Part shown: piece by piece, positions 3,230 through 45,224 of the stretch
Position numbering within the stretch: the stretch's first letter is position 1
Layout: each line of letters begins with the position of its first letter
Origin: Amphiura filiformis
Lineage: Eukaryota
Assembly: GCF_039555335.1 (NCBI RefSeq)
Contig: NC_092646.1
Location: 36,923,911-36,987,910, forward strand
Length of the DNA stretch: 64,000 nt
Reading direction: 5' to 3'
Program-made: the position numbers and the translations under genes
The notes under the pieces: generated by a model
Databases searched by the model: none
The model's input: only the letters and a program-made list of their open reading frames with translations
Told to the model about the DNA's origin: nothing

Positions 3230-3715
3230 TGAAGGCGGATGAGTTACGACAACCAAAGTTAACGGCAGTCCACTGGCGGATGAACAGAGGAGAAGGGAAA
3301 TGGTGGTCATCCTTAGTCCACCCAGTAGAAGGCTACAGTATTAGCCTAGAGGTAGAGGGTGGTCATGTAGTTTGGTGTGCTAGGCTATCGGTCGGAAGGT
3401 TGTAAGATCATGAGCTTTCTCATTTATCCTCTATCCCACTCATTGTGGCCCTAAACGTGCAGACACCACAGTGGGTGCATAGCGTGCCGTGGTTCGGAGA
3501 GTCACGTAAAAAGGTGGTCCCATGTAACGGAAGAGCAATATCTGGACATGTAAAAGTTGCAGGCCTTTTCATAAAGAGCAGGGGATCAGCTCGGGCCTGT
3601 TGTCTGTCACACTCAGCCTTTGGGGCTTGGCAGCATATCGACCCGTGGCGCGCTTTGAGGAATCTGAGTATTCAGAAAGCGTGGATAAATGCTGTTTTAT
3701 TTTTTATGTGATACT
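3230..3715 (+). mobile_element. tRNA-derived SINE, full-length copy of a two-copy family
   Basis: The 3420–3711 body is about 90% identical to 28862–29160 in the same orientation. The head (about 3340–3420) has box A- and box B-like motifs, TGTAGTTTGGT and GGTTGTAAGATC. The internal ORFs at 3445..3711 and 28896..29240 are SINE body, not genes. Confidence 0.6.
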
Positions 3716-3983: not shown

Positions 3984-4231
3984 CTGTAAAGAGAAATGTT
4001 AATAAAGAAGTTTATAATTATCCTTCATTTTTAATAGGAGGATGTTGGTGTATAGTGGAAAATTTTCACGGCGGTTTAATTTTTGTGCTTTTCACGGTTG
4101 AACATGCAGTCACAAATTTTTAACCCAACAAAAACATTTATTACACATAGAACTTAATAATGTAAATATAACAAACATATTTTTTCACCAGGTTCGCCGT
4201 CGCAAATAATTAAAGAGACAAGTAAATAAAG

Positions 4232-4306
4232 TGGTCCCGTCTAGGAAACGAACCCAGGACCTCAGGTTTACAAGACCTGTGCCATAACCATTTGGCCACG
4301 GGAACT
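4232..4306 (-). tRNA. tRNA-Thr(UGU)-like gene or pseudogene
   Basis: About 75 nt. It has a D-arm GCCA/AATGGTTA/TGGC, an anticodon arm CAGGT/CTTGTAA/ACCTG with anticodon TGT, and a T-arm CTGGG/TTCGTTT/CCTAG with one G·U pair. The acceptor stem pairs at only 5 of 7 positions. It is intronic, in the same intron as a MITE. Confidence 0.4.
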
Positions 4307-5310: not shown

Positions 5311-5460
5311 CTGATGGAAAATGAATGATAAAGTTCACTGTTGTAAAATGCCACTGAAAAAATGTTTCATTTTAAATTTGTCTTCAAAACATCAACATTT
5401 AAGTTTTGCATCAATCATCAATCATATGTACATAATGTATTAGCATCATAGCACCAATGC

Positions 5461-6060
5461 CTTTGACAGATCAGAGTGATCTTACCCTTTCATTTCTTTG
5501 GCTATCTTGACCAGGACCATGCGCAGAATTTTTTAATTGGTGGTGCAGAATTCCAAAATGCGGGCCTCCTCCCAAAAAAATCACTTGCATGCAGAAAGTG
5601 GACTTCACCACCCCCTAAAAAAATCTTCTAATTTGGACCTTCTTCGACATTTGTGCAGTTTTTTGTCATGAAGAGTGTTTTTTGGTAAGGATTTTTTTCT
5701 TGACTGTCTTCAGGTCTGCCTGAGTAACCTCTGACAGTGCACTTCCAAGGAGCTGCACCAAATATTGGTTTATATCCGTCAGCATTAACTAAGTACATCT
5801 AAATGATGTTACCCTTTCATTTCTTTGTCTATCTTGACTGTCTTCAGGTCTGCCTGAGTAACCTCTGACAATGCTGCATCTTTCTTCCAAGGAGTTGCAG
5901 TGCCAACTACACCAAATACTGGTATATATCTGTCAACAGTGACATCTAAATGAACTTACCCTTTCATTTCTTTGTCTACTTTGACTGTCTTCAGGTCTGT
6001 CTGAGTAACCTCTGACAATGCTGCATCTTTCTTCCAAGGAGCAACACTGCCTGGTAGACC
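5461..6060 (-). repeat. Tandem triplication (about 130-bp units, third partial) of the 3' tail and donor site of PARP4 exon 5960..6165
   Basis: The string cttaccctttcatttctttgtctatcttgactgtcttcaggtctgcctgagtaacctctgaca… recurs at about 5951, 5813 and 5495. Each copy keeps a GTAAG-type donor on the minus strand. Confidence 0.7.
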
Positions 6061-6165
6061 AAACACTATCTTATCTCCATCTACAGATAACTCTGCCATG
6101 TAGACTATCTTGATGACCACGGTTGTCTTTGGGGGAAGGTTACCTACACTCACTGTGAACACATC
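5960..6165 (-). CDS. PARP4: PARP4 exon (VIT domain, second half): DVFTVSVGNLPPKTTVVIKIVYMAELSVDGDKIVFGLPGSVAPWKKDAALSEVTQTDLKTVKVDKEMK
   Basis: Acceptor ctttgcag|GATGTG and donor GG|gtaagt. Near-identical to human DVFTVSVGNLPPKAKVLIKITYITELS…ATVAPWQQDKALNEN. Confidence 0.85.
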
Positions 6166-9187: not shown

Positions 9188-10316
9188 GAAATTAATACAG
9201 GGTGTATCAAAATGATTGGTACCGGGCTATGTGACATGTTCAAAAATATATCAAAAATATAAAATTTCAAATAAATATAGTTTTTTACTATCAATAGAAA
9301 GGGGCATATGTTAACGTATTGATCTGATAATCTGAAGATAATAGGTTGACGCATCTGGGAGCTATTGTCATTTAAACGATGATCGACGTAATCGTGGTTT
9401 TACTTACACAACACAAGATAAAACGGTTCACTGCTTGAACTATTTATTGTATACATGCTCTTCAATATCTCACCTCAGTCTACATGACAGCATTGCACAT
9501 GCTTTTAGAAAGATAGTTCCTGAAATTCCTGCCTTACGACTCTGGCAATGTGAGGTGAAGCCCTATATTGAATGAACTTAGCACCTGGGATGGATCCATT
9601 CTGTAACTGCCCATATCAAATTTTGAAACATTGCAAGTTATAGCATGTTTGCATGGGATACTCATTGCTCTTGGAAACTGTCTTCTAAATCTTATCTGCA
9701 CCTCTCCATAGCTTCGTGTCAACTAGTAATTCTTTACTATGAATGCACACTGAAGTGTGGAATACTGTGAAGCCATTCCAATAACTTTCACCACGTCTAA
9801 CCTAACATCCATGCACTGTCTACAGTCTATAGCCATTCTGTCACACCATCATTAATAATCTTAAACATCTTTATACTACAATTTAAATTACCGCCCTAGA
9901 AAGTGTTGATACATTAACTTCTTTCACCCACCTAAAATATTCAAGTCAATAATATTACTCCCAACCAATAAAATATTGATTAGAACATTTATTTATATTA
10001 TGAATGAAGAAATAGGCAAGGAAAAAATTTCCATGATTTTCAACATATCATTCTCACAAGGTATTGGTAGTAAAATAGAGCTTTGAAAATGATCCAGCGT
10101 TACGATGAAAAGTGTAAAAACACCTACTTTCCTTTATAATCATGTAACTTTAGAACAGAATGTGCTATCTTTATGATCTAAAATTCTTAGAGAAGATAAA
10201 ACTACTATAATTTCAAATATTTAAACAATTAACCCCAAGCTGGTACATAAAATAGTTTAAAAAATCTGCAAAAATGAAAAGTCGTTGGTACCAATCATTT
10301 TGATACACCCTGTAGC
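9188..10316. mobile_element. Non-autonomous DNA transposon remnant with 26-bp terminal inverted repeats and TA flanks (Tc1/mariner-like)
   Basis: CAGGGTGTATCAAAATGATTGGTACC at 9190–9216 and its exact reverse complement at 10289–10314, each followed or preceded by TA. The interior has no ORF. Confidence 0.5.
9538..9600 (-). CDS. PARP4: PARP4 micro-exon (catalytic domain): NGSIPGAKFIQYRASPHIARV
   Basis: Acceptor ttacag|AATGGA and donor GTC|gtaagg. It is 63 bp and phase 0, and sits between the exons ending …PSDFK and beginning DDEFAVYD, at the position of PARP1 …NISLDGVDVPLG…. Confidence 0.5.
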
Positions 10317-10394
10317 ATGCAAGTTATGTCATAACTGGTCTTATGGTTATCTTGTAAAGACTACAAAACAGATTACAGTAAATAGATGCATTTT

Positions 10395-10800
10395 GTAAAG
10401 GGTGTGACAAGTCCTACGTAGGGGAGACAGGAAGACAGTTTGGGACAAGACTCAAAGAACACAAGAAAGACTCTGAAACAATAGCCGAAAGAAAATTCAC
10501 AAGGGCAAACAGGAAAGAATCAACTTCTGAACAACACAAATCAGCCATTACTGACCACATCACGCAGGAGAACCATGTCATTGAATGGGAGGGGGCAAAA
10601 GTACTTGACAGGGACTCGAACGCATTCACCAGAAGAATATATAAAGGGAAGCTATCCAAATCCGCAAAAAGGGGGCCAAAGCAATCAACCGCGATGAAGG
10701 TATCGTCTCTCTCGATCACGTATACGATCCACTGCTCAAAACAAAAACAACATCACTTCCTGGAAATGTCAACAAGCCGTTTCGCGGGAAAAGCAGTGGA
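10395..10800 (+). mobile_element. Penelope-like element 3' fragment (GIY-YIG endonuclease domain) with a frameshift
   Basis: The plus-strand translation reads GCDKSYVGETGRQFGTRLKEHKKD…HKSAITDHITQENHVIEWEGAKVLD, then in another frame KEAIQIRKRGPKAINRDEGIVSLDHVYDPLL. These are canonical GIY-YIG and PLE C-terminal motifs. No reverse transcriptase lies upstream, so the copy is 5'-truncated. Confidence 0.65.
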
Positions 10801-10976
10801 CCAAGACACTTGTGATCAAGCCATCAGCCCAGATGGCGAAAGCTAAAGTAGTGAGTTACTTTTTATTGGATTTACCTAGCAAAATGTTTAATTATACAAA
10901 CAAATTACCTTGAAATTGGTAGCTTTGGAAGCTCTGTTTAAAATATGCTTACAGATAGCTCTGTCAGGTACTAATA

Positions 10977-11816
10977 TTAAGGTACTTCCTGACATCTGGA
11001 CATTGTCCTTACCTTAAAATCTGAAGGATACAGCTCTGTTCCTTTGACTCCATGAACACTATGATATCCTTGAGGGGCTTCTGACAGTTCCTTGTGGTAC
11101 TTCTTAACATCTGGACATTTCCTTACCTTAAAATCTGAAGGATACAGCTCTGTTCCTTTGACTCCATGAACACTATGATATCCTTGAGGGGCTTCTGACA
11201 GTTCCTTATGGTACTTCTTAACATCTGGACATTGTCCTTACCTTGAAATCTGAAGGATACAGCTCTGTTCCTTTGACTCCATGAACACTATGATATCCTT
11301 GAGGGGCTTCTGACAGTTCCTTGTGGTACTTGTTGACATCTGGACATTGTCCTTACCTTGAAATCTGAAGGATACAGCTCTGTTCCTTTGACTCCATGAA
11401 CACTATGATATCCTTGAGGGGCTTCTGACAGTTCCTTGTGGTACTTGTTGACATCTGGACATTGTCCTTACCTTCAAATCTGAAGGATACAGCTCTGTTC
11501 CTTTGACTCCATGAACACTATGATATCCTTGAGGGGCTTCTGACAGTTCCTTGTGGTATTTGTTGACATCTGGACATTGTCCTTACCTTGAAATCTGAAG
11601 GATACAGCTCTGTTCCTTTGACTCCATGAACACTATGATATCCTTGAGGGGCTTCTGACAGTTCCTTGTGGTACTTCTTAACATCTGGACATTGTCCTTA
11701 CCTTGAAATCTGAAGGATACAGCTCTGTTCCTTTGACTCCATGAACACTATGATATCCTTGAGGGGCTTCTGACAGTTCCTTGTGGTACTTGTTGACATC
11801 TGGACATTGTCCTTAC
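10977..11816 (-). repeat. Tandem array (about 7–8 copies of 117 bp) of the 3' tail and donor site of PARP4 catalytic exon 11817..12000
   Basis: The unit is ACAAGGAACTGTCAGAAGCCCCTCAAGGATATCATAGTGTTCATGGAGTCAAAGGAACAGAGCTGTATCCTTCAGATTTCAAG followed by gtaaggacaatgtccagatgtcaagaagtacc, repeated head to tail. Every copy retains the GTAAGG donor. Confidence 0.8.
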
Positions 11817-12000
11817 CTTGAAATCTGAAGGATACAGCTCTGTTCCTTTGACTCCATGAACACTATGATATCCTTGTGGGGCTTCTGACAGTTCCTTGTG
11901 GTACTTATTAACATCTTGGCATTTTCCAAGTGCTACTTCATTGATGGTCATCAGTCTTGTACCAGTTGTCTGACTTGCTGCAGAATATTTGGCACTTGTG
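11817..12000 (-). CDS. PARP4: PARP4 exon (catalytic domain): TSAKYSAASQTTGTRLMTINEVALGKCQDVNKYHKELSEAPQGYHSVHGVKGTELYPSDFK
   Basis: Acceptor cctgtcacag|C and donor AAG|gtaagg. Matches PARP4 STSIKYSHPGETDGTRLLLICDVALGKCMDLHEKDFSLTEAPPGYDSVHGV and PARP1 SKSANYCHTSQ…LLLGEVALG…KGKHSVKG. Confidence 0.85.
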
Positions 12001-12064
12001 CTGTGACAGGGGTAGAAAAAAATATTCCAAAGCTAATTCATTTGACAAGGAGATGGTTGACCAC

Positions 12065-12345
12065 TTAGCCCCCCCCAAAAAAGGTTTGTCTCAAAGCTCA
12101 CGAGAAATTTAAAACAAATGCGAAATGCGATTTTTTTTTTTTTTATTTTTTTTTTATTCCCAACTTTTTTCATGGAATTTTGAGAAAAAAAGTCTGATTT
12201 TCGCCGATTTTTCTGGAAAAACTATAAAAAATTATTTTTTGAAATAAAAAAATTTCCGCATTTGTTTTTTGTCAAACGTGGGATTTTACAAATGCGCGCG
12301 CAAGCTTTGAGACGAACCTTTATTTTTTTTGGCCTTACCAATGAG
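12065..12345. mobile_element. MITE-like element with terminal inverted repeats
   Basis: GGTTTGTCTCAAAGCTCACGAG near the left end pairs with …GCAAGCTTTGAGACGAACC near the right end. The interior is A/T-rich with poly-T and poly-A runs. Confidence 0.4.
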
Positions 12346-12574
12346 CACTTAACAATCATTTCTTGGGGGATGGCTTCAAAACCCAACTGCTGGTTAACTG
12401 GCAGCAACCTGGCACAACCAGCAGCTGGGCCTGGTTTGCATCGTTCAGAACAAAAGAAACCAGGCCCAACTGCAAATTCTATATAAGTTCTGCAAGGTCA
12501 ACTGGTGGATAACCAGCAGATGGGTTTTTAAACCATTCCTAAATATACTTAAGAGATTAAATAAATTTTGTATG

Positions 12575-13160
12575 CACAAAACCAGAAATTTACTCACGAT
12601 TGACGGTTTCGTATATCATGGTCGATAGACATCTTCAGAATGATGATGGTAGATCCTCACCACTTCCGGTTTGCCGGATCCTGACTGTAGATGGTGTATC
12701 AGCCAGGAGGGGATCGTATACGTGACTTAAGTAGTGGGCCCCCTCGTCTCTATTCATGACGTTGGTTCCCCTTCTCCTGATCCAGATGGATTCTCTGATG
12801 TGTCCAGAGTTAGAATCACACTCCTTACAAATAGGATTTTTGCATTATCCCAGTTAATGACGTGATTGTGTTGCACAGCATGCTCTGCTATATAGCTGAT
12901 TTTGACTGTTCACTTGACGATTGTTTACCAGCTTGGCGGGTATAGTTTTGCTTATTCTTCGACACCCTGGCTGTTTCTTTTTGGTGTTTGTTGAGACGAG
13001 TCTCGAATTTGCGACCAGTTTCGCCCACTTAGAATGGTTACAGTTGGTGCACAGAATTTCGTAGACGCAATCAGTAGTGTTACGGGGGTCGATTTTATCC
13101 TTACGATCGACCATGATATAGACGAAACCGTCAACCGTGAGTAAATTTCTGGTTTTGTGC
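12575..13160. mobile_element. Element with about 50-bp inverted termini and a degenerate GIY-YIG-like ORF (Penelope-related fragment?)
   Basis: Termini AAACCAGAAATTTACTCACGATTGACGGTTTCGTATATCATGGTCGAT (12575–12625) and the reverse complement at 13108–13160. The minus-strand ORF 12854..13195 contains …DCVYEILCTNCNHSKWAKLV…, resembling the GIY-YIG core (GVYKIPCxCG). Confidence 0.4.
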
Positions 13161-16530: not shown

Positions 16531-16949
16531 CTGCAAAGAGTGTAATTACGTAATGGGAATTACTGTTGAGTGAGAACAACCTTTCAAATACTAAACATTA
16601 AGAGTGCATTAATCCAAAGTCTCAGAACCAAATTATGAATGGTGAGCCCAGACCTTCATTTTTGAGGAGCTCGATTGCACCAGAGCTCCTACAGCTCTCC
16701 TTAACAACATTTCAGGAGTATGATTTACTGAGCTCCTCACTACTTGAATCCCTACGTTTAAAATACAGGTATTAAAAGATTGAGCTCCTTGTTGAGCACC
16801 TTAGTAAACTCAGGAGAGCGATTAACAGAGCTCCAGCAATTTTCAAAAATGAAGGCCTGTTAGCCAATATTTTAATAGTGCCTATAACCATTCATGCTTA
16901 ATTAAATAGCTGTTGTAATAGTTTATTGAGCTTGGAAATAAATCAAACT

Positions 16950-17204
16950 AATATATTGCTGTGATCTCTGTAATAGTAGCCTGTGCAATAGTGATAATAA
17001 TAAATCTTACCTGACATAGATTCTGTTTCTTGGCAATCATGCTGCGTGTTCTGATATCTTGCTGTGATTTCTGTGGCAGTAAGCTGTGCAATAGTGATAA
17101 ATCTTACCTGACATAGATTCTGTTTCTTGGCAATCATGCTGCGTGTACTGATATCTTGCTGTGATTTCTGTGGTAGTAAGCTGTGCAATAGTAATAAATC
17201 TTAC
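16950..17204 (-). repeat. Tandem array (about 3 copies of 97 bp) of the 3' tail and donor site of PARP4 exon 17205..17372
   Basis: The unit …CAGCAAGATATCAGTACACGCAGCATGATTGCCAAGAAACAGAATCTATGTCAG followed by gtaagatttatcactattgcacagcttactgccacagaaatcacag is repeated. It explains the overlapping ORFs at 16943..17188, 17037..17489 and 17231..17467. Confidence 0.8.
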
Positions 17205-17372
17205 CTGACATAGATTCTGTTTCTTGGCAATCATGCTGCGTGTACTGATATCTTGCTGTGATTTCTGCGGCAGTAAGCTGTAGAATTCCTGGCTAAGTTC
17301 TTTGAGTTGAGTTGTGTTAGATTGGTCAAGTGAACGCTTGATTTGAAGGAGAACAGCCTCTGCTTTCTCCAC
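17205..17372 (-). CDS. PARP4: PARP4 exon (PARP regulatory helical domain): VEKAEAVLLQIKRSLDQSNTTQLKELSQEFYSLLPQKSQQDISTRSMIAKKQNLCQ
   Basis: Acceptor gcgacag|GTGGAG and donor CAG|gtaaga, with boundaries anchored to ORF 17037..17489. Matches PARP4 VKAALKNGETAEQLQKMMTEFYRLIPHKGTMPKEVNLGLLAKKADLCQ. Confidence 0.85.
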
Positions 17373-22421: not shown

Positions 22422-22504
22422 CTGTATCATGAAAAGGTTTGAGTTATGAAAGGGATATATCATCTGAACAGACCCACAACATGTACATTTATATATGGAA
22501 TTAC

Positions 22505-22547
22505 CTTTCAGTATATTAGTGATCCAATCCATCTGGATAGCAGCTTC
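22505..22547 (-). CDS. PARP4: Candidate PARP4 mini-exon EAAIQMDWITNILK(G), the founder of the 83-bp array
   Basis: An open frame bounded by AAG|GAAGCT and AAAG|gtaatt. Possibly homologous to PARP4 …EQLQALLLEEVMNSS…. Only phase-compatible with the next exon if the CTAG|AG acceptor at 22411 is used. Confidence 0.35.
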
Positions 22548-23000
22548 CTTTTGTCTTGGTCACGTTCCATGGTGACTTTGTCTTACCTTTCTGTATCTTG
22601 GTGATCCAATCCATCTGGATTATAACAGCTTCTTTGTCTTGGTCATGTTCCATGGTGACTTTGTCTTACCTTTCTGTATCTTGGTGATCCAATCCATCTG
22701 GATTATAACAGCTTCTTTGTCTTGGTCATGTTCCATGGTGACTTTGTCTTACCTTTCTGTATCTTGGTGATCCAGTCCATCAGGATTATAACAGCTTCTT
22801 TGTCTTGGTCATGTTCCATGGTGACTTTGTCTTACCTTTCTGTATCTTGGTGATCCAATCCATCTGGATTATAACAGCTTCTTTGTCTTGGTCATGTTCC
22901 ATGGTGACTTTGTCTTACCTTTCTGTATCTTGGTGTTCCAATCCATCTGGATTATAACAGCTTCTTTGTCTTGGTCATGTTCCATGGTGACTTTGTCTTA
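22548..23000 (-). repeat. Tandem array (about 5.5 copies of 83 bp) of mini-exon-like units with their flanking donor site
   Basis: Unit …GAAGCTGTTATAATCCAGATGGATTGGATCACCAAGATACAGAAAG followed by gtaagacaaagtcaccatggaacatgaccaagacaaa. Every unit keeps GTAAGA. The unit length is not a multiple of 3. Confidence 0.8.
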
Positions 23001-23336
23001 CCAGGAAAGTTGAAAAAGAAGGAGGGACATCGGAATTATATCCTTGAGATAATCCCGTAGGTAATCCTGTCGCACCTATTCATAGTCCTTTATTCTCAAG
23101 TAGTTACACATCTACTTGAAAGTAGCCTTTGATGTGATGTGGGTTGCCGACTACGGTTGATTAATTTTCACTCCAGAATTAAAACCATATCCAATGTTTC
23201 TATAGAGAATCCCTTGAAAGTATGACACGTGTGTGTTAAGTACCTGATGTTGCTCTGAAGGGATGCTACACGTGGATACTATAAGAAAGAAATTTAGTTT
23301 TGTAAAGATTCCAAAAAAATCCGCCCATTTTGGAAC

Positions 23337-23581
23337 ATATGTGACCGTACATACGAATGAGCCGTAAATGTCCTCAATTGTATTCTGAGTTACAGTGTAA
23401 AATGGGCATGAAGGTCGTATTCATAGGTACCTCAATTTGGTGCTACATGTACCTCATTTAATGAGATACACGTAGCACCAAATTGAAATACCTATGAATA
23501 TGACCTTCATGCCCATTTTACACTGTAACTCAGAATACAATTGAGGACATTTACGGCTCATTCGCGCTGTACGGTCACATA
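23337..23581. repeat. Hairpin palindrome with about 120-bp arms
   Basis: TATGTGACCGTACATACGAATGAGCCGTAAATGTCCTCAATTGTATTCTGAGTTACAGTGTAAAATGGGCATGAAGGTCGTATTCATAGGTA… and its reverse complement, separated by a very short loop near 23459. Confidence 0.8.
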
Positions 23582-24029
23582 TATTAATTATTTAGGAGAG
23601 TGTTTTAGGATTTTGTTAGAAAAGGGATGATTTTTGATCATCTATATTTTATTGTTTTATGTATTTTCCTGTCATTTCCTGCAAACCTAATAAAGATATT
23701 TTGATAATTGAAAATAGGCTGTATCATAAATCGTAGAGGTTGAAAGCGTAACCAAGCGTGCAAAATTATTATTTGCCATGGAACTTCGGTCATATTTTAT
23801 TTGAAATAAACTGGATGTTAGGATCTGCATGCATGGTATGCATAGTATTGATGGTATACAGACACTGACCTTTCCCTAAAACTAGTAAGCATCAACTTGT
23901 GTATCACACCCGTCATGGGTTCGAACCCTTTTGTTGTATTTTATTGTTAAACCTAAATAGCGTGATTGCTTTTGAATGAGCGGCAACACACATATTTTGT
24001 TTGAGGATAGCTGGATCTATCTCCTTTCT

Positions 24030-24600
24030 TTACATCTTCTCTGGTCTTACCTTTCTGTATCTTGGTGTTCCAATCCATCTGGATTATAACAGCTTCTTTG
24101 TCTTGGTCATGTTCCATGGTGACTTTGTCTTACCTTTCTGTATCTTGGTGTTCCAATCCATCTGGATTATAACAGCTTCTTTGTCTTGGTCATGTTCCAT
24201 GGTGACTTTGTCTTACCTTTCTGTATTTTGGTGATCCAATCCATCTGGATTATAACAGCTTCTTTGTCTTGGTCCTGTTCCATGGTGACTTTGTCTTACC
24301 TTTCTGTATCTTGGTGATCCAATCCATCTGGATTATAACAGCTTCTTTGTCTTGGTCCTGTTCCATGGTGACTTTGTCTTACCTTTCTGTATCTTGGTGT
24401 TCCAATCCATCTGGATTATAACAGCTTCTTTGTCTTGGTCATGGTCCATGGTGACTTTGTCTTACCTTTCTGTATTTTGGTGATCCAATCCATCTGGTTT
24501 ATAACAGTTTCTTTGTCTTGGTCCTGTTCCATGGTGACTTTGTCTTACCTTTCTGTATTTTGGTGATCCAATCCATCTGGACAACATCTTCTTTGTCTTG
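24030..24600 (-). repeat. Second 83-bp tandem array (about 7 copies) of the same mini-exon plus donor unit
   Basis: The same unit as 22548–23000, with TGATCC/TGTTCC variants. It lies directly 3' (in transcript orientation) of candidate exon 24549..24710. Confidence 0.8.
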
Positions 24601-24710
24601 GTCATATTCCATGGTGAGGTTGTTTTCTGGTTGTACAGAAAGCTGTAGACCTGCAAAGCTTCTTCACTGGTTGCACTGTACCGACACTCACGGACACCAC
24701 CTGTGTCACT
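24549..24710 (-). CDS. PARP4: Candidate PARP4 exon SDTGGVRECRYSATSEEALQVYSFLYNQ(KTTSPWNMTKTKKMLSRWIGSPKYRK); 3' end uncertain
   Basis: Acceptor gatttacag|AGTGAC. The first half resembles PARP4 GMETRRQFAIKKTSEDASEYFENYIEELKKQ. The second half is itself an array-like unit, so the true donor may lie earlier. Confidence 0.35.
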
Positions 24711-25061: not shown

Positions 25062-26164
25062 CTAAAAAACTACCAATCTTTATCATAAATCATTTGAGGC
25101 TGTGTTGAAATAGCCCATTGTCATAACCATGAACAGCAAAGCATTAATGATGTGCCCATTAATGTTACATGGTCCAGAATTAATAATCTATTGCATTCAA
25201 GCAAGGGGCCAAATTCAATAGCTGATGCACACAATAAGTGTGAGGGTAGTGAGGGGTGTAACCTAAAGCACTGACCACCCTATCCTTGACTGACTGAGAG
25301 GTATCGTCTGCCATCTGGATGCCCAAACTGTTCTGAATCTCAGGATGCGCTCAGTTTAGGTCATATATAAAGTGCACAGTTCCACCGCACTGCTTATAGG
25401 TGTGTATCTGGGGTGAGGGGGCCAGCAACCCCCCACTCTAAGCTGCTGTGAACCACTGATTGGCCCATGTGGTTGTCTTTTATAATGTCTATGTGCCTAT
25501 ATTCTTTCCTATAAGTTCTTGACATGTGTTACTCCTCATGGGCTATTGTTCACTGTAGCATTTTATTTAAAAAAATAAGTGATATACAAGATAATTGTTC
25601 AGATAAAATCACATCATTGTTGTGCAGGAAAAACCACCTATGTACTTATGGCCCTTGAACAAAACTGCAAAGAGATTACAAAGAAGGTTTTACTTTAAAC
25701 ATGTTCAGGGGCCAATATGAGATATTTCCTGCCACACGACGACATCGATATATATCAACTATTTGCTGTCGTAGACGACCATGACGTCATATTGGCGACC
25801 CCTGAGCATTACCATAGCAACTGGATCACGCTTTCATGAGAACCACAATGGCGGTATCAATGTATGGAATTTATAGATCAAAAATTTAAATTACCAGTCA
25901 TATTTAAGACCTGCAACCCATGATTTCAGAAGGAAAACATCTCACAAAAGCTTACTAGGCAGTGAAACCCATAAGAAATGGCTAAAACTTGATTTTCAAA
26001 CAGCAGAACATAAACGTGTACAGCGTAGATAGCGTTGTCATGCAAACCGTGTGATCCAGCACTACGGAAGTAGTTGTGACCTCGGCAGGAAGTGATGTTG
26101 GTCTACGACAGCGAATTGACATATGTAACATAAAACCTTTATAAATACCTGTAGAAGAGTACAT

Positions 26165-26385
26165 TTGGCCAATTCATAGCATTCATCTGGGTATGCAGGT
26201 GCCTGGTCTGATCCCAAAGGATACACTCTGAAAACAATCAGTCAACATTAAATTGTAAAAATCAGACAAATACATTCCAAACTGTTACCTTCCTAAGGCA
26301 CCAAGTCTAATTCATAGCATTCATCTGGGTATGTTGGTGCCTGGTCTGATCCCAAAGGATACACTCTGGAAACAATTAGTCAAAA
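26165..26385 (-). repeat. Tandem duplication (2 copies of 110 bp) that contains a splice-site-bounded open segment (candidate small PARP4 exon)
   Basis: Copy 1: tttcag|AGTGTATCCTTTGGGATCAGACCAGGCACCTGCATACCCAGATGAATGCTATGAATTGGCCAAATGTACTCTTCTACAG|gtattt. Copy 2 has CCAACA in place of CCTGCA and a different 3' end containing an in-frame TAG. Confidence 0.4.
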
Positions 26386-26899
26386 ACATATTTATAAGGT
26401 GCGTTGGAGGGGAGCATGAACTATCGGTTGTTTGCACTCAAATATTGAGACAGTTAAAACTGACACACAAGTATGGGTTCTATATAGGAGATACCAAGGC
26501 TTGATATAAAGAGTGCCATCTCTACTCCATATGCATGATCTTTCTTGAGAAGGGGGTAAAAGGTCAAAACTTTCAATTTATTAGTTGCCTTTAAATCTTA
26601 AGAACCTCAAGACCTGCGGAAACATAAATGCAATAAACCATACTGACTCAGGTCTATATCTTTCATTTTAGAGGCTGTGCAATAATGATGAGCCGGGGGG
26701 ATAAAAATTACAAACAGTGTGCCAAAAAATGCTTACCTCCTCTCGGCCTGCCAAATTAGCTGCAATAATTAAAACCTTTAAAACAATTGTGGAGACTAAC
26801 CTTATCTTGTTGATGTTGAAGGAGCTTGCTTTACTTATCTTCGGTTTTTCTTGGGGATGAGCTGGTCCTGAGTTTTAAAAGAAAAATACACAAACAATA

Positions 26900-28536
26900 A
26901 CACAAAAGTAAGTGTTATGACCATGTATAGTTTGAACATAGGTACACACTAGCTCATCTGCACCAAGACACATCTGACACACATTAATGAAACCAAACTC
27001 ACCTGGAACAATCTTCCCTGAGCTGAACTCCTGTGTCATAGATGTCCCACAGACAATGTGTGCATCAGTATCTACATGTACCAGATTATCTTCACTGAGA
27101 CACATATCAAAGAAATTAAAACTCACCTGTGACAATCTTCCCTGAGCTGAACTCCTGTGTCATAGACATCCCACAGACAATGTGTGCCTCAGTATCTATA
27201 CTAGCTTATCTTCACTGAGACACGCATTAATGAAACCAAACTCCCTGTGACAATCTTTCCTGAGCTAAACTCCTGTGTCATAGATGTCAGACACACACAT
27301 TAATACATCAATGACACCAAACTCACCTGTGACAATCTTCCCTGAGCTAAATTCTTGTGTCATAGATGTCCCACAGACAATGTGTGGCTCGGTATCTACT
27401 AGCTTATCTTCACTGAGACACACATCAATGACACCAAACTCACCTGTGACAATCTTCCCTGACCTAAACTCCTGTGTTATAGACGTCCCACAGACAATGT
27501 GTGCCTCTGTATCTACTAGCTTATCTTCACTGAGACACACATCAATGACACCAAACTCACCTGTGACAATCTTCCCTGAGCTAAACTCCTGTGCCACAGA
27601 CGTCCCACAGACAATGTGGCTCTACATGTATTAGCTTATCTTTACTGAGACACACATCAAAGAAGCCAAACTCACCTGTGACAATCTTCCCTGACCTAAA
27701 CTCCTGTGTCATAGACGTCCCACAGACAATGTGTGCCTCATTATCTACTAGCTTTTCGTCACTGAGACACACATCAATGAAACCCAACTCACCTGTGACA
27801 ATCTTCCCTGACCTAAACTCCTGTGTCATAGACGTCCCACAGACAATGTGTGCCTCATTATCTACTAGCTTTTCGTCACTGAGACACACATCAATGAAAC
27901 CCAACTCACCTGTGACAATCTTCCCTGACCTAAACTCCTGTGTCATAGATGTCCCACAGACAACGTGTGGCTCTGTATCTACTAGCTTATCTTCACTGAG
28001 ACACACATCAATGACACCAAACTCACCTGTGTTATAGATGTCCCACAGACAATGTGTGCCTCTGTATCTACTAGCTTATCTTCACTGAGACACACATCAA
28101 TGACACCAAACTCACCTGTGACAATCTTCCCTGAGCTAAACTCCTGTGCCACAGACATCCCACAGACAATGTGTGCCTCATTATCTGCTAGCTTTTCGTC
28201 ACTGAGACACATCAATGAAACCCAACTCACCTGTGACAATCTTCCCGAGCTGAACTCCTGTGTCATAGGCGTCCCACAGACAATGTGTGCCTCTGTATAT
28301 ATACCAGCTTATCTTTACTGAGACACACATTAATGAAACCAAACTTAACCGTGACATGTGCAGCTCTGTATCTACTATAGCTTATCTTTACTGAGACACA
28401 CATCAAAGAAACCGAACTCACCTGTGACAATCTTCCCTGAGCTGAACTCCTGTGTCATAGACGTCCCACAGACAATGTGGGCCTCATTATCTACTAGCTT
28501 TTCGTCACTGAGACACATCAATGAAACCCAACTCAC
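26900..28536 (-). repeat. Tandem array (about 14–15 copies of 120 bp) derived from the 3' part of the BRCT exon, including its CAG|GTGAGT donor
   Basis: The unit encodes …(G)EFGVIDVCLSEDKLVDTEAHIVCGTSMTQEFSSGKIVT and copies the exon text MDFIDVCLSEDKLVDTEPHIVCGTSMTQEFSSGKIVTG. At 120 bp (40 codons) the array is largely open in frame on the minus strand, but the three ORFs 27265..27597, 27581..28006 and 27982..28266 are frame-shifted relative to each other, and the plus strand is also open. Confidence 0.8.
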
Positions 28537-28738
28537 CTGTGACAATCTTTCCTGAGCTAAACTCCTGTGTCATAGACGTCCCACAGACGATGTGTGGCTC
28601 TGTATCTACCAGCTTATCTTCACTGAGACACACATCAATGAAGTCCATACCCAGGATAGGGACACCATATTTCTGGGCCATACGACCTTTGTAAGAATCT
28701 TTTGCCTTCTCTGCATTGCTGACTATCAGGTGAGAGCT
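28537..28738 (-). CDS. PARP4: PARP4 exon (BRCT domain, C-terminal half): SSHLIVSNAEKAKDSYKGRMAQKYGVPILGMDFIDVCLSEDKLVDTEPHIVCGTSMTQEFSSGKIVTG
   Basis: Acceptor attgtag|AGCTCT and donor ACAG|gtgagt. Matches PARP4 THIILDNADVLSQYQLNSIQKNHVHIANPDFIWKSIREKRLLDVKNYDPY. Confidence 0.8.
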
Positions 28739-28861
28739 CTACAATATAATTATGAAAGAGATAAATCAGATATCAGTGTGACATTTCATGCCACCTAATA
28801 TAAAATTACATAACATACACTGGTATCAATTCAAAAATATACCCAAGCTACTGTAAAATCA

Positions 28862-29200
28862 TGAGCTTTCTCATTTATCCTCTATCCCACTCAGTGTGGC
28901 CCTAAACGTGCAGACACCAGAGTGGGTGCATAGTGTGCCGTGGTTTGGAGAGTCACGTAAAATGGTGGTCCCATGTACCAAAAGAGCAATATCTGGACAT
29001 GTAAAAGTTGCAGGCCGTTTTGTAAAGAGCAGGGGATCAGCCCCGGCCTGTTGTCTGTCACACTCAGCATTGAGGTCAACTTGCGCTGCCCTCAGGGGCT
29101 CGGCAGCATATCGACCCGTGGCATGCTTTGAGGGATCTGAGTATCCAGAAAGCGTGGATAAATGCAGTTTTATTATTATTATTGTTACTGCTTATATATA
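28862..29200 (+). mobile_element. tRNA-derived SINE, 5'-truncated copy with a (TTA)n/TA-rich tail
   Basis: 28862–29160 is about 90% identical to 3420–3711. It lies inside PARP4 intron 1. Confidence 0.6.
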
Positions 29201-30124: not shown

Positions 30125-30289
30125 CTTTTTTGTAATAATGTATGACACAATTCCTCCATTATCTGTGATTTTCTTCCTTAATTCTTGCTTCTGTTTAAAT
30201 CTCACTTGAGCTGCATCCAAATCTAAGACAATCTGACATCCATGAAAAATCCCAGCTGCCGTAGCTGTACCGGGAGCTGTACCGGCAAC
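30125..30289 (-). CDS. PARP4: PARP4 first BRCT-encoding exon: VAGTAPGTATAAGIFHGCQIVLDLDAAQVRFKQKQELRKKITDNGGIVSYIITKK (5' extent and start codon unresolved)
   Basis: Donor AAG|gtaaac. Matches the human PARP4 N-terminus MVMGIFANCIFCLKVKYLPQQQKKKLQTDIKENGGKFSFSL. The frame stays open upstream to 30505, with in-frame ATGs near 30382 (MVQPEF…) and 30505. A possible acceptor cattcacag|GTTGCC sits at 30289. Confidence 0.65.
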
Positions 30290-30759: not shown

Positions 30760-31920
30760 ACATCATGCGCCATCATTATCCCAACCTGCATTTTGCATTT
30801 TTTGAAGTACCAAATGGTTACATTACAAAAACCAAGAAAAAAGGTTGGGATCTTGATGGCGCACAAAATCAGCAAATCCAACTTTTTGATGAAAAGCGCC
30901 CTCGTGCAAACTTCAAAGCATCATAACGGGCTGCGCCATCAAGATCCCAAGTCCGAACAAGTTTGAAATTAAAGACCTCAATGATAAGTTTAATTTTTCA
31001 GCAAAAAGTTTTTGGGATTTTGATGGCGCACATAGTTAACAGAGGTCAAAGGTCAAAAATTCTTATTTTCGCACATTTTTACATGCCTGTATTATTGCGC
31101 GCCAACTTCACCTGACTCTCCGAATAAAATTTCATCAAAGAAGAGGTAATTCTCTGCAAGTACTGAAAAATTAGCTTGGGATATCTTGATCTTCATATTT
31201 TTCTGATTTTTTGAAAATGGACTTACATGTAGCCTCATTGTGGAGGTCAATAATTGCCCTATTTTCCCCTCATTATGACGCTGTAGCACAATGTGGGCTT
31301 TTTACTGCATCACAAAAAGATGCGCCAACAAGATCCCAATTTTATTTATCTTCTAGCTTCGTGGCAACTGGTAGACAAAAAAAATTACCAGCTACTTGGG
31401 ATCAAGTGGGCGCACTAATGTAAAAGAGGTCAAAGGTCAAGCTTTGTGCCAAAGTGACGCATATTTCCCTATGTGCAGCACAAAACTGGAACTTTAACCC
31501 GCAATAAAAATGTGCGCCAACATGATCCCATCTCATTTTTTGGATGCATGGCTAAAGGAGCTCATGTATAACTGAATGCTAGTAAAAAAAAAGTGGGATC
31601 ATGTGGGCGCACTAATTCAATAGAGGTCAGACAAAGTTTGAAATTTGACCCTCCGTAATGACCTTTGACCTCGGTTGACCTCGATTTTATTTCGGGCATG
31701 TAATCCCCTCGTATCAAGAATTCCACCCACCAAATTTGAGCCCGATCGGACAAAGTTTGAAATTTGACCCCTCCATAATGACCTTTGACCTCGGTTGACC
31801 TCGATTTTATTTTGCGCATTATATTCCCCTTGTATCAAGGATTCCACCCACCAAATTTGGGCCCGATTGGACAAAGTTTAACATTTGACCTTTGACCTTG
31901 ACCTCCGATGACCTTTCAAA
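30760..31920. promoter_or_regulatory. Cluster of at least 6 direct-repeat AGGTCA half-sites (DR1, one DR4) carried on small hairpin repeats, 0.4–1.6 kb upstream of the PARP4 5' end
   Basis: GAGGTCAAAGGTCAA at about 31041 and 31427. TGACCTTTGACCTCGGTTGACCTCG occurs twice (about 31652 and 31770, DR1 plus DR4 on the opposite strand). TGACCTTTGACCTTGACCTCCGATGACCTTT is at about 31880. Four modules flanked by inverted GCGCCAaCAaGATCCCAA…TTGGGATCaaGTGGCGCAC span 30770–31640. Confidence 0.45.
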
Positions 31921-37319: not shown

Positions 37320-37730
37320 CACAAAAAGCCACAGGCATTGTCATTTTCTATTCTTCCCTATACTCAGTTTTCTTTCTTTTTCTCTCCCTATTCCTTCTTC
37401 TCTCCCTAGTCCTTCCTCTTTCTGTTTCTCTTCTCTCTTTCCCTTTCTCATTTACTTTTTTCCTCTTCTCCCTCTCTTCAGTTTCTTTTTCCCCTTTCCC
37501 TTTTTCTTCCCTCTTTTTGCTATTCTTCTTTCCCCTTTCTCTTCTTCCCTCTTTTTCTTTCATTTTCTCTTTTCTCTTCTTTCTTCCAATTCCTCTTCTT
37601 TCTTTTTTCCTTTTTTCTTCTCCCTTCCCCTTTGTCTTCTTCCCCCTTTCTTTCCCTTTTTACTCGTCTCTCTTCCCCTTTTTTCTTCCCTCTTTTTCTC
37701 TCCTTCCCCCTGGAAAATTTTACAGGTGAC
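37320..37730. repeat. CT-rich (polypyrimidine) low-complexity tract of about 400 bp
   Basis: ttctttctttttctctccctattccttcttctctccc… ORFs 37280..37729 (+) and 37348..37563/37520..37759 (-) are composition artefacts (FLFLSL… and KEKEKR…). Confidence 0.85.
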
Positions 37731-44642: not shown

Positions 44643-45224
44643 GCCTATCTTGTTGGTTTAAGTGAAGTTTGCTACTGGTTTTATTATTACCTGTGTTGCG
44701 ATTCGAAATCCCACAAAGAGTAAGTAAGTTCGTTATTAAATGTGGTAGGCCTCGCCTCAGTACCCCCCTCCCCCCTCCCGGTCCCAACATACACATTGAC
44801 TCAATTAAGGCGCGGATTCACGGTGGCTGACGGACCCACCCCCCAAAAATAAAGAGAAGAGAAGGGGAAGAAAGGAGAAAAAGAGAAGAGAAAATGGAGG
44901 AAAGGAGGAGAGAAACTAAATTGCACATAATTGAGTAGGCCCATGTGTAAATAACCGCACAGTCGGGACGATTGGAAGTAGGTCCTATAATAGGCCTGCG
45001 ATTATTTTCTAAAAAAGGCATTGCTTGAAGGCGGGTCATGTGAAAATTACTGCGGGTCCGCCGATATGCAGGGCCCCTCACATTTTGCCACCAATGTCAG
45101 TATTAAGACGGACTCCATACCGACTTCATCTATTTATGCATGCTTTAGTAATTGCCAATCTCAAGTTTTGCAAATTGAGTTCGGGCCCTTTTTCTGTTAA
45201 AATGCAATTGATTCAAATAGTAGT

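Follow-up and report, generated by a model that had tools for sequence, protein, structure and literature searches.

Tandem copies of an exon/intron boundary in intron 2 of an ophiuroid PARP4 gene: a probable 'mirage'-type minisatellite

A tandem array with a 117-bp period lies directly 3' of a BRCT exon in the ophiuroid echinoderm Amphiura filiformis, and the first unit of this array is the 3' end of the exon itself. The exon belongs to PARP4, a gene that on homology is carried on the minus strand of a 64-kb window of contig NC_092646.1 (assembly GCF_039555335.1, positions 36,923,911 to 36,987,910), the window being the whole stretch of DNA that was analysed and the source of all coordinates given here. 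An earlier note on this DNA had raised the question of whether the repeat provides the protein with an insertion of variable length right after its BRCT domain. The question can be regarded as settled, with no variable 39-aa repeat gained by PARP4 at this position; the array is intronic and non-coding and adds no peptide repeats to the protein. It is probably a non-coding boundary minisatellite of the 'mirage' type, which carries silent decoy donors and arose when the boundary between exon 2 and intron 2 was duplicated in tandem.

The array and its unit

Tandem Repeats Finder reports a period of 117 with 6.2 copies and 92% matches at 27305-28031, and degenerate continuations of the array reach 28642. 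The modal unit is 117 bp, or 39 codons; the earlier note was thus right about the existence of the array and its position after the BRCT exon, but not about its size, which it had put at 120 bp, nor about the 40 codons that it derived from this. Alignment of the units, together with a lag alignment of copies 0 and 1, shows that the repeat unit consists of the last ~110 nt of exon 2 and the ~7 nt (GTGAGTT) with which intron 2 starts, with ~94% of the 117-bp unit being exon sequence. The junction from copy to copy in the array is a short imperfect homology. That the unit is a copy of an exon/intron boundary had gone unseen in the earlier note.

The units were delimited by cutting at donor sites, giving one exonic progenitor and 14 intronic units on the minus strand. 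The progenitor (u0, 28653-28537) comprises the last ~110 nt of exon 2, as judged from the unit and lag alignments, and the intronic units (u1-u14, 28536-27003) each end at a donor-like site. Their lengths are, in order, 115, 72, 119, 115, 89, 117, 117, 117, 115, 117, 117, 82, 118 and 124 nt, so that six of the 14 are 117 nt long and the remaining eight are of other lengths within a range of 72-124 nt. A degenerate partial last unit (GTGAGTTTGGTTTCATTAATGTGTGTCAGATGTGTCTTGG...), recognised from the sequence and an alignment row, is found at 26940-27002 on the same strand, where the array merges into unique intron sequence.

The motif GGTGAGT is found on the minus strand at 28537, 28422, 28231, 28116, 28027, 27910, 27793, 27676, 27561, 27444, 27327, 27127 and 27003, with decayed versions of the donor at 28350 (GGTTAAGT) and 27245 (GGGAGTT). 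A perfect CAG|GTGAGT donor had been ascribed to each unit, which overstates the case as it is present in 12 of the 14 intronic units, the two decayed sites accounting for the others. There are 13 matches to CAGGTGAGT in the 64-kb window, all of them within the 117-bp array and on the minus strand, against 0.41 expected, and a count of 13 was reached in none of 100 shuffles. An acceptor-like TCTCAG is present in each unit, 86 nt upstream of its donor, and intron 2 has 13 TCTCAG sites.

The progenitor is 81-91% identical to the intronic copies, whilst the intronic units are 77-100% identical to one another, with u7 and u8 the same (100%), u5 and u10 at 99%, and the edge units at 77-88%. A period of 349 is also reported by Tandem Repeats Finder, which is a higher-order period of three units, and two sub-families of unit can be recognised. 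The array displays concerted evolution, with a homogenised centre and decayed edges. The donor-proximal half is the best-conserved part of the unit, the donor 9-mer having 3 mismatch cells across the units where 11 are expected. Selection specific to the donor was considered and is unsupported, as the 9-mer ranks only 12 of 109 windows for conservation and conservation is similar throughout the 3' half of the unit. The unit does not occur elsewhere in the 64-kb window, and an Rfam scan of the window found nothing in the array, its sole match being a tRNA.

The host gene and its exons

Exon translations from ~17.4 kb to 5 kb have 58% identity over 552 aa to coral PARP4 (P0005, P0006) and find matches in hundreds of PARP4 proteins. 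A BRCT domain is recognised at the deduced N-terminus (Pfam PF00533, residues 2-81, 37.8 bits against a cut-off of 21.3), and the two exons that encode it are 98% identical to RefSeq XP_072018548.1 (P0002), annotated as "PARP4-like [Amphiura filiformis]". This identity assigns the window to A. filiformis or a very close relative and speaks against amphioxus, which the known mirages might have suggested, as its source. The published A. filiformis genome has a heterozygosity of 3.2% (PMC11310086), which the few differences between the window and XP_072018548.1 fit.

The N-terminal half of the BRCT domain (GIFHGCQIVLDLD...SYIITKK) is encoded at 30125-30289 on the minus strand, as found by tblastn with coral PARP4 (P0006) and by reading of the sequence, with an uncertain 5' limit and a donor GT at 30124-30123. 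Exon 2 (28537-28738, minus strand) is 202 nt long, starts in phase 0 and ends in phase 1 (SSHLIVSNAEKAKDSYKGRMAQKYGVPILGMDFIDVCLSEDKLVDTEPHIVCGTSMTQEFSSGKIVT+G), and provides the protein with a linker as well as the C-terminal half of its BRCT domain; it is defined by homology to coral, to XP_072018548.1 and to a more distant ortholog (L001), and its authentic donor CAG|GTGAGT is at 28539-28531.

The earlier note had placed the next exon at 25.0 kb. Direct splicing from exon 2 to that exon is ruled out, as the phase 1 end of exon 2 does not fit the phase 0 start of the 25.0-kb exon. Two small, conserved exons at 26867-26801 and 26227-26149 restore the frame, and therefore the 25.0-kb exon is not the next one. 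The first of these, exon 3 (67 nt, 26801-26867, minus strand, phase 1 to phase 2, G|PAHPQEKPKISKASSFNINKI|R (GPAHPQEKPKISKASSFNINKI)), comes right after the array and is placed by phase logic, by a match to coral PARP4 and by conservation in a contig from a related taxon (L002). Its acceptor is preceded by a long pyrimidine tract and is 135 nt downstream of the last donor of the array. The second, exon 3b (79 nt, 26149-26227, minus strand, phase 2 to phase 0, VYPLGSDQAPAYPDECYELAKCTLLQ), is placed by phase logic, collinearity with coral PARP4 and conservation in L002. Intron 2 extends over 28536-26868 (1.67 kb) and is mostly occupied by the array. The product expected from the first donor aligns collinearly to P0006, the coral PARP4 (40% identity over 263 aa, E = 3e-60), which leaves no space for a 39-aa insert, and NKIRV, which straddles the junction of exons 3 and 3b, matches the coral protein.

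Exon 3b has a boundary duplicate on its acceptor side, with 84 nt at 26309-26392 being 90% identical to 26171-26254 and lying 138 bp upstream. The duplicate contains the last 27 nt of the intron and the first 57 nt of exon 3b. The upstream copy meets an in-frame TAG, and therefore the downstream copy is the real exon 3b.

Coding capacity of the array

The array had been described as mostly open in frame, and equally so on the two strands. Long open reading frames (ORFs) do exist, of 141, 110 and 94 aa on the minus strand and 148, 116 and 89 aa on the plus strand, but the frame is repeatedly broken; the three mutually frame-shifted ORFs that the earlier note saw on the minus strand are in fact eight separate ORFs of at least 45 aa. 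The presence of ORFs on both strands is a mere result of repeating a stop-free unit.

When the frame is read on from exon 2, the first in-frame stop is a TGA at 28505-28507 on the minus strand, 10 codons past the authentic donor, and it is met by simple read-through as well as by use of any of the 14 downstream donors. Cassette use of the units fares little better, since amongst the 102 combinations of a TCTCAG acceptor with a unit donor just one is both frame-preserving and free of stops, this being 87 nt in u3 that encode an out-of-frame peptide. The 13 single-unit cassettes comprise 11 that have an in-frame stop, one of 41 nt that changes the frame and so meets a stop in exon 3, and the open one of 87 nt. 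The proposal that spliced-in units would provide PARP4 with a variable insertion after its BRCT domain is therefore unsupported for the haplotype in the window, and pseudo-exons that could be included in frame as cassettes were likewise rejected, with 1/102 combinations qualifying. A coding tandem repeat is contradicted by the frame breaks, the TGA, the enumeration of cassettes and the collinearity of homologs. The earlier note had itself preferred an intronic, non-coding array to a coding expansion, a preference that is borne out by the broken frame, the stop 10 codons past the donor and homologous PARP4 proteins that are free of any insert.

Variable columns amongst the copies fall on the three codon positions in the proportion 15/7/18 (p = 0.09), and frameshifts and truncations are also present. 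Most of the differences that separate the exon copy from the array consensus are synonymous and at third positions (CTG/CTA, ATC/ATT, GGA/GGG), which is expected if u0 alone is under constraint at the protein level. The ORFs of the array contain no Pfam family above cut-off on either strand. A search of a 5.8-billion-sequence protein database with the peptide of the exon and repeat returned only single-copy BRCT proteins, with no further copies of the repeat, although absences from word-filtered protein searches are weak evidence, one such search having missed XP_072018548.1 of A. filiformis itself.

The array in another allele and in related taxa

XP_072018548.1 is a BRCT-only model of 129 aa that reads through the exon 2 donor into unit 1 and ends ...KIVTGEFGFIDVCR, 10 residues past the donor. 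The read-through peptide is GELGFIDVSQ* in the window and GEFGFIDVCR* in the RefSeq allele, and the RefSeq allele, an independent one, thus contains unit 1 and stops just as early. With 552 aa from the PARP and VIT exons as the query, no A. filiformis model was found, the best match being coral at 58%. It is probable that the arrays damage automated annotation, with a 129-aa stub running into unit 1 and no model found for the PARP, VIT and vWA exons. The lone stub may result from such fragmentation of the annotation, or intron 2 may be truly retained.

A scan of metagenome contigs with a DNA pattern derived from the unit gave one match, which is the orthologous intron in L002 (GenBank whole-genome shotgun contig JAAUXV010085015.1). 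Positions 1-1056 of L002 contain at least 12 degenerate units of ~83 nt made up of sequence from the end of exon 2 and GTGAGTT, each shorter by ~28-34 nt than the unit in the window, and a perfect donor is present in ~3 of 12. The shorter unit is either a homogenised deletion or the product of an independent duplication that had another 5' breakpoint, at CAGTGAAGAT / CAGGTGAGTT homology. Exon 3 is found at 1321-1390 of L002 (77.6% identity) and exon 3b at 1961-2039 (83.5% identity), both with conserved splice sites. For intron 3 the identity between the window and L002 is 46.9% as against 44.7% for shuffled sequence, and alignment is lost.

L001 has its exon 2 donor at the identical position (…GGGAAAATCGTTG|GTAAGT), and its intron contains no duplicated units and no array. 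No conserved exon 3 was detected by tblastx between the intron in the window and that of L001, the exon being too short and divergent. The end of exon 2 is homologous to the BRCT domain of coral and of the array-less L001, hence it is ancestral and must be the source of the array and not its product. The array is limited to one lineage; within it, the array either had more than one origin or is an old feature that turnover or conversion has held close to the exon sequence.

Sister arrays in the same gene

All five long-period arrays of the gene body begin at authentic exon 3' ends that were mapped by homology. The 117-bp array, with its 14 extra copies and authentic donor at 28537, has a unit of which ~7 nt are intronic. 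The four sister arrays are also on the minus strand. The 83-bp array starts at the end of exon 5 (...SRWIGSPKYRK|GTAAG, donor 24549) and has ~13 copies over two blocks, the first of ~7 units at 24044-24617 and the second of ~6 units at 22501-23002, with an insertion of ~1.04 kb between the blocks and 11 nt of intron in the unit. The 97-bp array (16947-17281, 3.4 units) follows the exon end ...IAKKQNLCQ|GTAAG with its donor at 17205, the intron part being 20 nt. The 115-bp array (10981-11927, 8.2 units, 97% matches) starts at the end of a PARP-catalytic exon, ...GTELYPSDFK|GTAAG (donor 11817), with an intron part of ~5 nt, and the 147-bp array (5700-6067, 2 units and a degenerate third, thus ~3) starts at the end of a VIT exon, ...KVDKEMKG|GTAAGT (donor 5960), with an intron part of 43 nt. 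The GTAAG donor is kept by each copy of the sister arrays. The 117-bp array had been singled out as unlike the others in having a unit that is a multiple of 3, which is true of its modal length, but the others are the same boundary phenomenon at other exon ends. The exon of the 147-bp array reads GG|G TAA across its donor (5957-5959, minus strand), such that read-through stops at once although 147 is also a multiple of 3.

If five duplications of these sizes were placed at random in ~29.6 kb with ~22 donors, the probability that every one spans a donor would be ~4e-6. The intron parts of the five units are short, at 5-43 nt (Fisher p ~0.02).

The ~1.04-kb insertion (23003-24043, minus strand) that splits the 83-bp array is bordered on its two sides by a directly repeated sequence of 7-8 bp, (G)GTAAGAC. 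It has the ends CAGAGAAGATG...CAACTTTCCTG, an imperfect terminal inverted repeat, as well as an internal inverted repeat of ~250 bp, and from these features it looks like a non-autonomous hAT-like element. As the insertion is inside the 83-bp array, the array is older than the insertion.

Comparison with known systems

Minisatellites of this kind are known from amphioxus as 'mirages' and have been described in Adh3, the globins BflGb6 and BflGb9, troponin C and PGBD5 (PMC3087553, PMC3902484), the founding description being that of Canestro et al. 2002 in NAR, as related in these two papers. The genes that carry them are reported to splice normally (PMC3087553, PMC3902484). Three sequence-level marks of a mirage are found in the PARP4 array: tandem units of minisatellite size, a first unit that is the authentic boundary, and a splice signal in the copies. 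Amphioxus mirages and the PARP4 array share tandem copies (10-160 bp) of an exon/intron boundary, of which the first is authentic, together with GT/AG signals, units that are 81-100% identical, a concerted centre and divergent edges. In both cases a normal protein would still be encoded, and several arrays per gene are possible. The PARP4 arrays differ in that the host is an ophiuroid echinoderm and not a cephalochordate, and in that five donor-side arrays and one acceptor-side duplicate are found in one gene; the array after exon 2 is also longer than the amphioxus mirages, with 14 extra units and 1.6 kb. It is in amphioxus that length polymorphism, somatic instability and normal splicing have been shown.

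A human counterpart is the 37-bp variable-number tandem repeat (VNTR) in intron 7 of F7, the first element of which spans the exon 7/IVS7 boundary (PMC1557585). Experiments on F7 found that the most upstream of the identical donors is chosen, with the downstream pseudo-donors being functional but never competing (PMC1557585). F7 and PARP4 are alike in having pseudo-donors downstream of an authentic donor within a minisatellite that spans a boundary, and the rule that the most upstream donor is used explains how the PARP4 array can be harmless. The F7 unit is 37 bp as opposed to 117 bp and is mostly intronic, and F7 is a single mammalian locus.

Decoy exons that promote intron retention, as in SF3B1 and OGT (PMC6097662, PMC7373989), are similar to the PARP4 units in being intronic and exon-like, with real splice sites, and in being absent from productive mRNA, this last being predicted from the DNA in the case of PARP4. 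Decoy exons are single, conserved and functionally tested, whereas PARP4 has an array of exon-end copies read from a genome assembly. A further relation is to the Rogers model, in which an intron is gained through tandem duplication across an AGGT proto-splice site (PMC3087553), with a case in potato RdRp (PMC4974935). Tandem duplication gives duplicate splice signals within a gene both in this model and in PARP4, but in the model the duplicate becomes a new intron in an exon, whilst the PARP4 copies only lengthen an existing intron and create no new position. No report of boundary-minisatellite arrays in echinoderms was found in the literature searched, and the A. filiformis genome paper is silent on them.

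Origin of the array and alternative explanations

It is proposed that a boundary segment of ~117 bp, including GTGAGT, was duplicated head to tail, possibly through replication slippage or microhomology-mediated repair, either of which would fit the short imperfect homology at the junction. Unequal exchange or slippage would then have multiplied the copies to 14 extra units and changed their order, a step visible in the structure of the array because u7 equals u8, u5 and u10 are 99% identical, and there are sub-families, a 349-bp period and decayed edges. The spliceosome would use the first, authentic donor (28537|28536), which would pair with the exon 2 acceptor, as suggested by the collinearity of the protein and the known rules of 5' splice-site choice. 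The whole array would leave with the 1.67-kb intron, the acceptor of which lies before 26867, and the 12 perfect downstream donors would remain silent decoys. Read-through transcripts, and all those spliced from a later donor, would run into the TGA after 10 codons, giving a BRCT-only stub or presumably being degraded by nonsense-mediated decay (NMD). An equivalent process would have acted at four other exon 3' ends of the PARP4 gene.

A number of observations weigh against this simple account. XP_072018548.1, the sole RefSeq model found here, reads through the donor, and thus the removal of intron 2 may perhaps not always be clean. Use of the first donor is itself deduced from homologs and splicing rules. 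The array is present in L002 despite an intron 3 that cannot be aligned, and a purely neutral minisatellite would need a recurrent origin, or ongoing conversion from the exon, to account for this. Random slippage alone does not predict that all arrays span donors (~4e-6), nor that the intron parts of their units are so short (p ~0.02). It is possible, if rather doubtful, that duplication is not random slippage but is targeted to 5' splice sites, for example by breakage coupled to transcription or splicing, or that selection keeps arrays of decoy donors; the five arrays that start at donors, their end-points 5-43 nt into the intron and the array in L002 all point in this direction. If this were true and general, 'mirages' would extend from cephalochordates to a mutational or regulatory phenomenon that is deuterostome-wide.

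A related explanation is that the array is a functional decoy, in which donors and TCTCAG sites engage U1 and exon definition non-productively and so slow or block the removal of intron 2, with an intron-retaining or NMD-targeted transcript, or the BRCT-only protein of 129 aa, tuning the dosage of PARP4 as in the decoy-exon model. The 12 perfect donors and 13 TCTCAG sites within the intron would suit such a role, XP_072018548.1 is the exact read-through product (BRCT and 10 intron-encoded residues), and decoy exons that promote retention are documented in human cells (PMC6097662, PMC7373989). The array has also persisted in the L002 intron though the flanking intron sequence is saturated, and it is the donor-proximal half of the unit, with its 3 mismatch cells against 11 expected, that is best conserved. 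This conservation is however not specific to the donor (rank 12 of 109, with the whole 3' half alike), a perfect donor is kept in just ~3 of 12 units of L002, the more distant L001 is without the array, the amphioxus and F7 precedents splice normally with silent pseudo-sites (PMC3087553, PMC1557585), and the RefSeq stub may merely be a gene model broken by repeats. A functional decoy is thus considered unlikely, and a silent minisatellite is preferred. It is much less plausible still that alternative donors or cassettes give PARP4 variable 39-aa repeats after BRCT. A modal unit that is a multiple of 3 and up to 141 codons open in the register of the exon first suggest such a coding VNTR, but the stop 10 codons past the donor is present in the alleles of both the window and RefSeq, eight of 14 units are not 117 nt, the one passing cassette in 102 is in the wrong frame, sister units of 83, 97 and 115 nt are not multiples of 3, and there is no insert in homologs, nor any repeat beyond the exon copy in the 5.8-billion-sequence database.

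Two further explanations can be regarded as highly improbable. One is that the array is an artefact of assembly, through long-read errors that were collapsed or expanded, or through chimeric reads, where the exon ends. The published A. filiformis assembly is Nanopore-based and from an animal with 3.2% heterozygosity (PMC11310086), and repeats are hard to assemble; against this, the units differ by substitutions, indels and sub-families (77-100%) and are not an identical stutter, a transposon with its target-site duplication is inside the sister 83-bp array, the independent allele XP_072018548.1 enters unit 1 with different residues, and at least 12 units are present in the orthologous intron of a related taxon, on the independent contig L002. 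The other, equally hard to credit, is that a dispersed satellite or transposon-borne repeat landed by the exon or was exonised, so that the end of the exon came from the repeat. Other repeat families are indeed present in the window, but this unit is found nowhere else in it, the one match in metagenome contigs is the orthologous intron, and the exonic part is ancestral PARP4 BRCT sequence that is common to coral and L001, neither of which has the array.

Boundary minisatellites of the 'mirage' type, which in the literature searched were known from amphioxus and single analogues such as human F7, can now be placed in an echinoderm. With 3 to 14 identical strong donors, such arrays amount to natural experiments in 5' splice-site choice, and the gene sets of A. 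filiformis and similar genomes may be fragmented where they occur.

Other repeats in the window and in L001

Not all of the tandem arrays are derived from exons. The 121-bp array at 31630-31890 contains GGTCAAAGGTCA-type motifs, as do two arrays in L001 with a period of 144-145 bp and ~22 copies (5439-5876 and 9400-12717), the unit of which reads ATG|GTGAGTAAGT on the reverse strand. The 121-bp array of the window and the 144-145-bp arrays of L001 probably belong to a transposon-associated satellite family.

The introns of PARP4 also contain two copies of a dispersed repeat of ~320 bp, at 3401-3704 and 28852-29177, in the same orientation and with 86% identity, the latter ending ~115 bp upstream of the exon 2 acceptor. 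A tRNA-Thr(TGT) gene, or an element derived from such a tRNA, is found in an intron of PARP4 at 4231-4305 on the minus strand (Rfam 49.1 bits; ARAGORN). Outside the gene there are long low-complexity tracts, CT-rich or GA-rich, at 37374-37711 and 44851-44915.

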